This document shows positions 36,283 through 38,493 of a DNA stretch of 38,527 nucleotides, piece by piece. Made by a program: the position numbers and the translations under genes. Location: contig CAIMEJ010000075.1 in NCBI GenBank assembly GCA_903839985.1, positions 1 through 38,527 on the forward strand. The letters are read 5' to 3'. Below the pieces are notes generated by a model, which did not search any database, was not told where the DNA came from, and saw nothing but the letters and a program-made list of their open reading frames with translations. The stretch's first letter is position 1; each line of letters opens with the position of its first letter. This stretch comes from an uncultured bacterium. Its GTDB lineage: Bacteria; Chlamydiota; Chlamydiia; Chlamydiales; VFKH01.

Positions 36283-38493
36283 CTAGGCGTTTACTTGTTT
36301 TTCCAGGCCGCGAGCTGTACCAGCAGGAAGCTCTCCGAGGGGAAGAATAGCTTGTTTGCCGGCGCTATTGCGAAAAATACGATGTCCACCTGTGGAATGG
36401 TCCAGGGTAAATCCATACTCCTTTAATAGACGGATAATTTCCCGCTGTTTAGCACCTCTTGCAATTGTGAAAGGGGCTTTTTCAAGTGAAGCTGCTGCAG
36501 ATGCTTTTGCTGGGCTCGCTTTTACGACCATTTTGGGAGGAGGTCCAGCAGCTAATGGAGGATGTGCACATTCTTCTTTTGGGGCAGAAGATCCTTCCAA
36601 TTCGCTTTCAACGGCTACTGGAGGAGGGACGCTTTTTTCTATACCTTCGATAGAGAGGAAATCTAGGCATGCTTCAGGAAGGTCTTGACCTGTATAAACA
36701 ATTTCTGGATCACCTTCTGCTAAGAGAGCATGCACATCTGTTACAATGAGTGTCCAGATAATCAGAGGAAGACTTTCTTCAAAATAGAGTTTTTGAATCA
36801 AGGGTATCTGGGTAGAGGCTGATTCAAAGGTTAAGTGTGTGGCTAAAAAGGCTAAATGTTCTTCATGGAGTACCGTCAGTTGTTTTAAAAAGAGCGGAAA
36901 ATGTGTTATAACGGGCGTAAATTTTTCAACAAAAGGAAGCCAAATAGGGGGCATAAATAACCCTGTGCGCATTTTATGATCACACAGATGTCTAAAATCG
37001 GCCTCAAGGCCCGCTTTGTCTAAGCTCTCTAGCAACCCTTCTAAAAGTGTTTCTATCGTAGTTCTGATTTTTGCTTTAATAGGCAGGAGAAAAGAAAGTT
37101 CTGGTGAGGGGCTGCCTTTTTCAGCAACAGGCCTGAAATAAAGATCTAAATTAAGGTGGAGTCTATTTAAGTAGTTTTCGGAGGGAGTATATCTATCCTC
37201 TGGAAGCATACTAACTAGTACTTGCTGTTCCAATATGCGGTGGATATCCATCCATACGTAACCTGTAATAGATGCCTGGGTATAAATAGATGTTAATTGA
37301 GAGACTAAGCTATTTTGAGAGAGCTTTTTTGTGGAAAGAGGTTCTCCCTCAACCTTGGAAAGCTCTTCGGGTGTGAGTTTCCCGGCTAGCGCATCATGTA
37401 ATCGTAGAGCATAGGATTGTGAAAATCTTTGGCAATAGGCCATATGCTCGCTAAGCTCTTTCTTTAAAACAATGATATCTTTTACGGAGGGTTTACTAGA
37501 TAAATCCTCTAGAATGCTTCCAAAATATGTGATAGAACGAGCCAGGTCGACTCCAATCAAATGTTTTATCGCTTCATTGACTTCTTTATAAAAATGGAGA
37601 TATTTGAAAAGATCTTTAAGAGTCTTTCGAACATCTGATGTCATAAGGGACTTGCTTGCAGGAAATGCAGAGAGATTCTTATCTGTCAGAATCAAAGGGC
37701 CTTGAGGATGCTTCAAAAAGTGCAGTCCTAAATCTAATTTTTTGGTCAGGCTTTCTGCAATTTCTTGAAGTAGAGGTATTTTTTTAGCGAATAATTTTAA
37801 GGCCAGCTTAGCAGCAGTAGAAGAGGATTTGGAGGCTGCTTCTTTAGGAGATAATACGGGTAAAGCAGATGTAAGGGCATGTAGATGCTCCCGAACTCTC
37901 TCTAGGCGGCGAAGGGCGCTGCTTAAGGGCATTAAGAAACTGGGATCTGGAGAAAATACAGGACATTTTACAAATATCTCTGCTTCATAGGTGAGTCCAA
38001 TTTGCATTAAGCTATAGGTGGTCATAAAGTCAGAGCTGAGTTTTTCTATTGCTGATTGAAGCGGAGTATGACCTAATTTCATGTCCTCTAGGACTGCTTT
38101 AAAGGCATCTAGTGATTCGAATATTTCAAGGCCCCAAAGCTCTAGAAAACTGATACGATCGGATAAGGATCTATTGTGGAACATCGCGTGTATTAAAGCA
38201 TCATGCTCAGCGCTTAAACCAAGGTCGGCAATATCTGTATGTCTAATTTTTGGTACAGCTCCGCCTAGAACTGGTGCAGCAATTCCAACAACATGGCACA
38301 TGGCTAGCTTTAAGGGGGCTGATGGCATTGCGGATAGGCCGAGCTCGCCCGAATCAGGAGCTGTTAATAACTCCAGTTTAGCAAATACTGCTTTGGATGC
38401 TTCCCCTGTTTTTACAACAAGAACAGAATTGGACGTCAACTCTAAAAGGACAGGTGAGTTAGCGGACGGAGGTTTTGTAAGCTGTATAGACAT
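36283..38493 (-). CDS. Large uncharacterised protein (736 aa) with a C-terminal HicA/YcfA-like toxin domain
   Basis: This long uninterrupted ORF has helical-looking N-terminal ~630 aa with no family recognised. A Pro/Ala-rich linker follows (VPPPVAV...HPPLAAGPPPKMVVKASPAKASAAAS). The last ~55 aa, KQREIIRLLKEYGFTLDHSTGGHRIFRNSAGKQAILPLGELPAGTARGLEKQ, match the HicA pattern, including the G-x-H catalytic motif. Confidence 0.8.
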   Translation of the reverse strand: MSIQLTKPPSANSPVLLELTSNSVLVVKTGEASKAVFAKLELLTAPDSGELGLSAMPSAPLKLAMCHVVGIAAPVLGGAVPKIRHTDIADLGLSAEHDALIHAMFHNRSLSDRISFLELWGLEIFESLDAFKAVLEDMKLGHTPLQSAIEKLSSDFMTTYSLMQIGLTYEAEIFVKCPVFSPDPSFLMPLSSALRRLERVREHLHALTSALPVLSPKEAASKSSSTAAKLALKLFAKKIPLLQEIAESLTKKLDLGLHFLKHPQGPLILTDKNLSAFPASKSLMTSDVRKTLKDLFKYLHFYKEVNEAIKHLIGVDLARSITYFGSILEDLSSKPSVKDIIVLKKELSEHMAYCQRFSQSYALRLHDALAGKLTPEELSKVEGEPLSTKKLSQNSLVSQLTSIYTQASITGYVWMDIHRILEQQVLVSMLPEDRYTPSENYLNRLHLNLDLYFRPVAEKGSPSPELSFLLPIKAKIRTTIETLLEGLLESLDKAGLEADFRHLCDHKMRTGLFMPPIWLPFVEKFTPVITHFPLFLKQLTVLHEEHLAFLATHLTFESASTQIPLIQKLYFEESLPLIIWTLIVTDVHALLAEGDPEIVYTGQDLPEACLDFLSIEGIEKSVPPPVAVESELEGSSAPKEECAHPPLAAGPPPKMVVKASPAKASAAASLEKAPFTIARGAKQREIIRLLKEYGFTLDHSTGGHRIFRNSAGKQAILPLGELPAGTARGLEKQVNA

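Follow-up and report, generated by a model that had tools for sequence, protein, structure and literature searches.

A chlamydial protein with a C-terminal HicA domain

The stretch of DNA analyzed here, referred to as the window, comprises 38,527 nucleotides (nt) of contig CAIMEJ010000075.1 (assembly GCA_903839985.1) from an uncultured member of the Chlamydiota. Near its end, an apparently monocistronic open reading frame (ORF) occupies positions 36283..38493 of the minus strand, running from an ATG start codon to a TAG stop codon (36283-36285) and encoding a protein of 736 amino acids (aa). These coordinates are exactly the ones given in an initial annotation, which was made from the sequence alone. 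Apart from its place in the ORF list, the gene is supported by the presence of the identical protein on two other assemblies and by 27 other clusters of family members. The start codon is considered sound, because there is a stop codon in frame 18 nt 5′ of the ATG and because the orthologue has matching first residues (MSIN... versus MSIQ...).

An AlphaFold2 model based on an alignment of 28 family sequences (alignment A1) has a mean predicted local distance difference test score (pLDDT) of 79 and a predicted template modelling score (pTM) of 0.75, and divides the protein into four parts, all encoded on the minus strand. The leader (aa 1-84, 38242..38493) is delimited by low pLDDT and by its composition; its sequence is not conserved, but its character is. 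It is followed by a helical body (aa 85-625, 36619..38241), which consists of confident helices in two models and has no profile or fold match. [quoted passage not shown] The same four parts are found in the second model, built for family member P0005, which is only 25% identical (pLDDT 78.3, pTM 0.75).

Identity of the C-terminal domain

The canonical HicA toxin is a single-domain protein of 50-100 aa with a dsRBD-like fold, encoded beside hicB (reviewed in PMC11594946). In the window protein, the Pfam profile HicA_toxin (PF07927, COG1724) matches aa 684-734 with 31.2 bits and an E-value of 2.3e-7, the gathering score being 27, and the last 70 aa on their own reach 36.6 bits with the same profile. 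The sole PDB sequence matched by the window protein is a HicA-family protein, 1WHZ, which likewise has GGH at the active-site position. When the family profile derived from alignment A1 is used instead, five solved HicA proteins are matched by sequence (9SVK, 1WHZ, 4C26, 6G26, and 5YRZ) and nothing else credible. In the model, DSSP assigns an α-helix at 683-692, β-strands at 696-701, 704-708 and 714-718, and a second α-helix at 726-735. In Foldseek searches of the PDB, only the C-terminal domain was credibly matched, by 1WHZ, 5YRZ_B and 6G26_E/F with a probability of 1.00, a root-mean-square deviation (rmsd) of 1.8-2.2 Å and target template modelling (TM) scores of 0.66-0.79. In the viral fold library BFVD, only small HicA-like proteins were matched.

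The active site can be located by alignment with HicA from B. pseudomallei. His704 (codon CAT, 36382..36384, minus strand) aligns with residue 24 of this protein, the catalytic His that is replaced by Ala in the H24A crystal sequences 4C26 and 6G26, and Gly702 aligns with Gly22. Mutagenesis has shown that the catalytic His (His24 in BpsHicA, His28 in YpHicA3) and the Gly preceding it are needed for toxicity or RNase activity (PMC11594946). None of the 25 intact family members departs from Arg684, Gly694 or His704. Residues 702-704 of the window protein and its orthologue read GGH in place of the family's GSH. The domain is strongly basic, with a pI of 10.5 in the window protein and a family median of 11.35, and the helical body is near neutral (6.6). 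By profile score, fold and catalytic His, the C-terminus is a genuine HicA-family domain. This agrees with the initial annotation, in which a HicA module was proposed at this end of the protein and of which the quoted motifs, including GGH at 702-704, were all found.

The regions preceding the HicA domain

The part of the protein that precedes the HicA domain had been described as unassignable to any family, and indeed aa 1-680 have no match in Pfam, NCBIfam, PADLOC or PDB sequences. The body (aa 85-625) is modelled as approximately 25 helices of 4-37 residues, packed in a globular way and without any strand, mostly at a pLDDT of 85-96. Every Foldseek match of this body in the PDB has a probability of at most 0.25 and a rmsd above 17 Å, and the search of BFVD likewise returned nothing credible for it. 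Judged from the models, these approximately 540 aa constitute a confidently predicted fold without known relative, which is neither HicB-like nor SMC-like. The earlier idea that an N-terminal subdomain might resemble HicB is not borne out by structure prediction: aa 85-625 contain helices only, so that the partial RNase H-like fold of HicB is absent in cis, and no HicB was matched in PDB sequence or fold searches. Among the conserved positions of the body are D586, which is invariant in the 25 intact members, R444, P431, G371, D416, and N448.

The leader has a different nature. Residues 1-81 are predicted to be disordered, with a pLDDT below 50 over 1-35, 39-60, and 74-81. Over residues 2-25, Ser, Thr, Pro and Asn together account for a fraction of 0.50 in the window protein. 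The family mean is 0.476, compared to 0.206 in 172 control proteins taken from the same contigs as the family members (Mann–Whitney p = 2.7e-15). In the same residues of the family, Ser amounts to 0.229 versus 0.081 in the controls and acidic residues to 0.050 versus 0.105. The protein has no Sec signal and no conserved transmembrane or hydrophobic segment. Disorder, Ser/Thr/Pro richness, few acidic residues and the lack of a Sec peptide are features of type III secretion signals, and the leader has all of them, although this evidence is compositional only. Aa 1-84 are therefore regarded as a candidate type III secretion signal and putative chaperone-binding region. The Ser/Thr/Pro-rich N-terminus without Sec signal that had been noted before is thus confirmed, its secretion-like composition now standing out against the controls. 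A membrane or Inc-like protein was considered as well and rejected, as a bilobed hydrophobic domain is lacking and hydrophobicity reaches borderline values (Kyte–Doolittle approximately 1.74) over just two segments, aa 58-81 and aa 574-592. The latter segment holds the invariant Asp586 and sits in a confident helix bundle.

The linker that joins body and HicA domain is predicted to be disordered at aa 628-671, and aa 631-683 consist of 24.5% Ala and 15% Pro, in keeping with the Pro/Ala linker annotated earlier. A low-complexity linker of 45-110 aa, Pro-rich in most cases, is present in all 25 intact members.

Distribution and evolution of the family

The initial annotation called the protein an orphan. 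This holds in the sense that a HicB partner is lacking, but not in the sense that homologues are lacking. An exhaustive phmmer search of 1.84 billion representative sequences with aa 1-651 yielded 27 further clusters at 50% identity, nearly all of 640-804 aa, among them an orthologue, P0002 (46% identical, E-value 1.6e-131). Word-indexed homologue searches with the protein or the family profile found the window's own protein only. Genome scans with the window protein, P0020, and P0021 gave nothing, and neither did a metagenome scan with alignment A2.

In alignment A1, 22 of the 28 sequences match the Pfam HicA profile on their own at an E-value of at most 0.01, and by inspection the C-terminal HicA module is present in 26. 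The two exceptions are P0024, which ends before the module, and P0011, which is frameshifted within it. One member of 404 aa, P0022, might have been taken for a short form like the Class 13 proteins discussed below, but was discarded because its gene is cut by a contig end. As these 26 of the 28 representatives share the four-part layout, the fusion is the conserved architecture of the family and not a local accident. Altogether, the family shows an old, selected fusion of a leader, a novel body, a tether and a HicA domain with intact catalytic residues, without antitoxin. In databases, some members go under the name 'predicted RNA binding protein YcfA' or under that of 'type II toxin-antitoxin system HicA family toxin [Chlamydiota bacterium]'; labels of the latter kind are misleading for this family.

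Conservation differs among the four parts. Mean pairwise identity is 18% in the leader, 22% in the body, 19% in the linker and 40% in the HicA domain, which is the best conserved. A comparison between the window and the orthologous locus L084 illustrates how fast the gene evolves, as its product is 44% identical, compared to 80-83% for the products of the syntenic M15, YebC, and SprT-like neighbours. Within the gene, the HicA domain reaches 57% identity, the body 46% and the leader 24%. Most genomes have a single copy, but tandem paralogues occur, as pairs in L083 and L086 and as a set of three in L089. The first copy in L083 (P0011, 7657-9988) has a frameshift in the HicA domain, the remainder of which lies in a separate ORF of 57 aa (9818-9988); either the RNase of this copy has decayed or the sequence contains an error.

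As had been supposed, the organism is chlamydia-like: the YebC protein encoded in the window shares 61-67% identity with its counterparts from metagenome-assembled genomes (MAGs) of Rhabdochlamydiaceae, Parachlamydiales and Chlamydiales. Mapping of the orthologues leads to the same phylum. All family loci from reference genomes belong to Chlamydiae or Chlamydiales MAGs, and every cluster that could be placed is a Chlamydiota MAG. Next to P0020, a distant member, a GyrA is encoded that shares 80-85% identity with the GyrA proteins from MAGs of Chlamydiia, Chlamydiales and Parachlamydiales, and TLC-type nucleotide translocases are present on several family contigs. There is no named cultured species among the family matches, and in the nearest relatives by YebC, no family member was found inside the 20-kb loci around yebC. 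The family is thus rare, patchy, and restricted to environmental Chlamydiota.

Other large ORFs of 700-880 aa without Pfam match follow yebC (L003) or the tandem arrays (L083; L086 12319-14448, 709 aa). The ORF of 733 aa in L003 (10817-13018), although at the equivalent position after yebC, is unrelated by BLASTP or hhalign, and the ORFs of 705 and 876 aa behind the array in L083 (12343-17109) were rejected as remote paralogues at a hhalign probability below 1%. These ORFs may encode further lineage-specific large proteins at variable sites.

Genomic context and the missing antitoxin

Downstream of the gene, 30 nt past the stop codon, a hairpin with a stem of 10 bp followed by a T-run forms an intrinsic terminator (36230..36253, minus strand), as indicated by a terminator scan. 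Beyond it lies a gene called as tRNA-Leu(CAA) (36141..36224, plus strand), which is convergent with the family gene. The terminator had been annotated as bidirectional; the convergent tRNA and the minus-strand terminator stand, but the function on the plus strand does not, as the scan backs the terminator on the minus strand only and the hairpin is followed on the plus strand by just 'ATTTGTG'. An Rfam match to BTnc231, a Bacteroides small RNA, at 36062-36290 (minus strand), antisense to the tRNA-Leu and the terminator, reaches 28.7 bits where the gathering score is 80.4, and is judged to be due to chance. At the other side, the window ends 34 nt 5′ of the ATG, and the three independent assemblies all stop 34-41 nt upstream of it, at an AT-rich palindrome (breaks at window 38494-38527, L001 1-41 and L002 1-41). 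L001 starts with AATGTTATAATTAACAT, which is nearly palindromic. These common ends suggest that assembly broke off at an AT-rich hairpin or repeat, a break that would hide this organism's own upstream neighbour.

The window is otherwise occupied by core genes, including dnaJ, an E1 dehydrogenase gene, ftsK, uppP, hemH, comEC, ndh, hprK, ptsI, dnaX, pgm, a chaperonin gene, rsmI, a gene for a peptide-chain release factor with PCRF and RF-1 domains, a GNAT gene, a sprT-like gene, yebC, and an M15 peptidase gene. The 31 other large ORFs are core-type or unannotated, without any defence or mobile-element gene and without hicB, and PADLOC gave 0 matches. The stretch 29298-32334 holds a gene for a UGP3-like UDP-glucose pyrophosphorylase (746 aa, with C-terminal hexapeptide repeats), a relative of plant or plastid type that is unusual in chlamydia, together with a GT4 glycosyltransferase ORF whose start overlaps with the UGP3-like gene.

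No HicB partner had been seen in the initial annotation, and the wider comparison upholds this. In the window, none is present downstream. In the orthologous locus L084, which has the same M15/yebC/sprT-like/tRNA-Leu neighbourhood, the place upstream is taken by surE, which is read from the opposite strand and lies 163 nt away. Other family loci have unrelated housekeeping neighbours, often convergent or divergent, and neither HicB nor a conserved small ORF adjoins the gene at L083, L086, and L088-L096. Altogether, hicB is absent from all of approximately 12 loci, i.e., the window without its upstream side, the L084 orthologue and about ten others. Two antisense ORFs inside the gene (110 aa, 36356..36688, and 147 aa, 38081..38524, both on the plus strand) were rejected as possible partners, as the orthologue has only ORFs of 43-49 aa at those places. 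Canonical two-gene toxin-antitoxin (TA) modules do exist in these genomes, as follows from a HepT/MNT-type pair (PF01934 and PF01909) at 19181-19827 of L083, on the same chlamydial contig as the tandem copies.

Two of the other loci have features of their own. In L084, approximately 1.4 kb of broken ORFs (12300-13650) lie between the family gene and tRNA-Leu(CAA), with a transposase-like fragment '...RPFYHQKENRVDGNLW' and an ORF of 122 aa. The window lacks this stretch and has its terminator directly adjoining the tRNA gene. The extra sequence resembles the remains of an insertion sequence beside a tRNA gene. In L090, four tandem paralogues of a Ser/Thr protein kinase (377-387 aa) and an APH/choline-kinase-like gene (2220-7819) are situated directly upstream of, and divergent from, P0020, and a TLC nucleotide translocase gene is convergent and downstream. 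The kinase array may be another expanded set of host-interaction genes.

Comparison with known systems

The family protein shares with the canonical HicA proteins (4C26/6G26; TTHA1913 from T. thermophilus, 1WHZ; 5YRZ from S. pneumoniae; 9SVK) the Pfam family, the α-β-β-β-α fold, the Gly-x-His catalytic motif and the GT...Q helix. While these are small, stand-alone toxins encoded next to hicB, here the domain is the tail of a protein of 736 aa without hicB. The gene does not correspond to a type II HicAB locus, since the toxin is not a small single-domain protein and no co-transcribed hicB is adjacent to it, the upstream side being judged from the orthologue.

Closer architectural parallels have been catalogued by Gerdes (mBio, 2024; PMC10865869). 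Class 13 in this survey comprises proteins of 340-440 aa with an α-helical N-terminus and a C-terminal HicA domain, and Class 14 consists of SMC-HicA fusions. Both are, like the family gene, monocistronic, with a large, mostly helical N-terminal part, HicA at the C-terminus and no separate antitoxin. Compared to the description of Class 13 (reference WP_067334119.1), the family protein is about twice as large and has, in addition, a long Pro-rich tether and a leader resembling a type III secretion signal. The phmmer search with aa 1-651 retrieved no relatives of 340-440 aa, the sole short match being the contig-cut P0022. Class 14 (WP_223300692.1) has an SMC ATPase head and long coiled coils, whereas family members have no SMC or AAA match in Pfam and the model contains neither a head with β-strands nor a long coiled coil. 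Fused HicA-HicB proteins (Classes 11-12) contain the HicB fold in the same polypeptide, which the family protein does not. Unlike Classes 13 and 14, the family gene lies in a housekeeping and not a defence context. Chlamydiae do not occur in the paper itself or in the covered part of its Table S1.

CapRelSJ46 and EzeT similarly combine a toxin and a large regulatory domain in one polypeptide without separate antitoxin. However, their toxin folds are unrelated and they act inside the bacterium, CapRel in phage defence, while the family locus is not a defence locus. The family also shares features with effectors that act on the host by means of toxin domains, namely AvrRxo1 (PMC4938570) and the C-terminal toxin domains of large amoeba-endosymbiont proteins described by Zhang et al. 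(2012; PMC3482391): a catalytic domain of toxin type forms the C-terminus of a large, lineage-specific protein in an intracellular bacterium, and an immunity or antitoxin gene is missing. HicA does not occur in the catalogue of the latter study (0 occurrences). Polymorphic toxins have a variable C-terminal toxin on a conserved N-terminus for trafficking, and a downstream immunity gene, whereas the family has a constant C-terminal HicA domain, a variable N-terminal body and no gene of this kind downstream. Furthermore, no RHS, FilH, LXG or similar domain is detected in the protein by Pfam.

Possible roles of the protein

The best reading of these data, with a probability of roughly 0.4, is that the protein is a host-directed, probably type III-secreted RNase effector. 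The bacterium would make the protein without any antitoxin, and the Ser/Thr/Pro-rich, acid-poor leader would route it to the type III secretion system of the chlamydia. Until export, a secretion chaperone or docking onto the protein's helical body presumably keeps the RNase inactive. In the cytosol of the host, an amoeba or another protist, or on the inclusion surface, the helical body would position or regulate the protein, and the tethered basic HicA domain would bind and cleave host RNA via His704, independently of the ribosome. The fuller proposal, in which a TA RNase serves as the warhead of a type III-secreted effector family that cuts host RNA and in which the new helical fold of approximately 540 aa is both a targeting and a safety module, is put forward somewhat more tentatively.

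From the following features we infer secretion, RNase activity and a host target. The HicA domain is under selection, being the best conserved part and having invariant His704, Gly694, and Arg684, in a protein that has neither an antitoxin gene nor a HicB-like fold in cis. The leader is uniform in composition yet unconserved in sequence. Fast evolution, tandem paralogues and a patchy, Chlamydiota-only distribution, in non-defence, housekeeping surroundings, argue for an effector as well. Two published cases bear on such a role. For C-terminal toxin domains without immunity gene on large proteins of amoeba endosymbionts, host-directed use has been inferred (Zhang et al., 2012; PMC3482391), and AvrRxo1 is a precedent for a TA-type (zeta-toxin-like) fold that serves as a type III secretion effector (PMC4938570).

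Several points weigh against a host-directed effector. A disordered, Ser/Thr/Pro-rich N-terminus can have causes other than secretion, and no conserved small ORF resembling a secretion chaperone is adjacent at any family locus examined; such an adjacent chaperone is common among effectors but not required. RNase activity is assumed from the conserved residues, and the GGH of the window protein and its orthologue departs from the GSH of the family, although 1WHZ shares it. The family is also rare (28 clusters among 1.84 billion sequences), and none was found in a named cultured chlamydia, so that nothing can be transferred from model species. Finally, a defence protein that senses phages would account just as well for the fast evolution and the tandem duplication.

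This last point leads to the alternative of a cis-autoinhibited toxin or sensor that stays inside the bacterium, a fused toxin-antitoxin like CapRelSJ46, EzeT or the fused HicA classes, in which the helical body would mask His704 until a phage, stress or developmental cue frees the HicA domain to cleave the RNA of the cell itself or of an invader. A monocistronic gene without antitoxin is what would be expected of such a protein, the flexible tether, conserved in every intact member at a length of 45-110 aa, would permit docking of the domain back onto the body, and conserved polar body residues such as D586 and R444 could form the interface. The same logic has been proposed for fused HicA proteins (Gerdes, 2024; PMC10865869), and a fast-evolving protein with paralogue arrays would suit an arms-race sensor. 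Yet the neighbours are housekeeping genes, without defence island, mobile elements or PADLOC match, the body has no HicB-like fold, and the disordered leader of approximately 80 aa would be left without a role. An autoinhibited toxin is considered the main rival, somewhat less probable than the effector.

Two other explanations are less probable still. The dsRBD-like fold, the very basic domain, the housekeeping surroundings and the mostly single-copy gene, syntenic in two related organisms, are compatible with a non-toxic, domesticated RNA-binding protein, in which the HicA module would anchor the helical scaffold to bacterial RNA for processing or for regulation of the developmental cycle. 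Pure RNA binding would not need the catalytic His, which is conserved in all 25 intact members, or the conserved preceding Gly, and a core factor in RNA metabolism would typically not evolve far faster than its neighbours, be patchily present, expand in tandem or be missing where synteny would place it in the organisms closest by YebC. These observations make this role improbable. A regular type II HicAB locus, in which the toxin is extended and hicB lies just past the window edge or elsewhere in the genome, is very improbable: the window does end 34 nt 5′ of the ATG, where three assemblies break, and the NCBI pipeline does name one member a type II HicA family toxin, but the gene upstream of the syntenic orthologue is surE on the opposite strand, approximately ten other loci have neither HicB nor a conserved small partner, and a terminator and a tRNA gene follow directly downstream. 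The three readings offered in the initial annotation accordingly remain apt, ranked as a delivered RNase effector, before a cis-neutralised toxin and then a non-catalytic RNA-binding tail. The last takes third place because the invariant catalytic His argues against it.

Implications

HicA is normally a protein of 60 aa that needs an adjacent HicB. Here, it is kept with its His intact and free of antitoxin across an obligate intracellular lineage, at the end of a large protein with a novel, confidently predicted helical fold of 540 aa, which has no known relative whichever reading applies. If the protein is kept inside the bacterium, it would add a large HicA architecture under cis regulation to the 14 contexts already catalogued (Gerdes, 2024). 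Should a host-directed effector be the right reading, it would be the first one based on HicA, and no family of RNase effectors would have been described from Chlamydiota before. A TA RNase would then have been recruited against the host, and export of the protein would give chlamydiae a means to attack host RNA.

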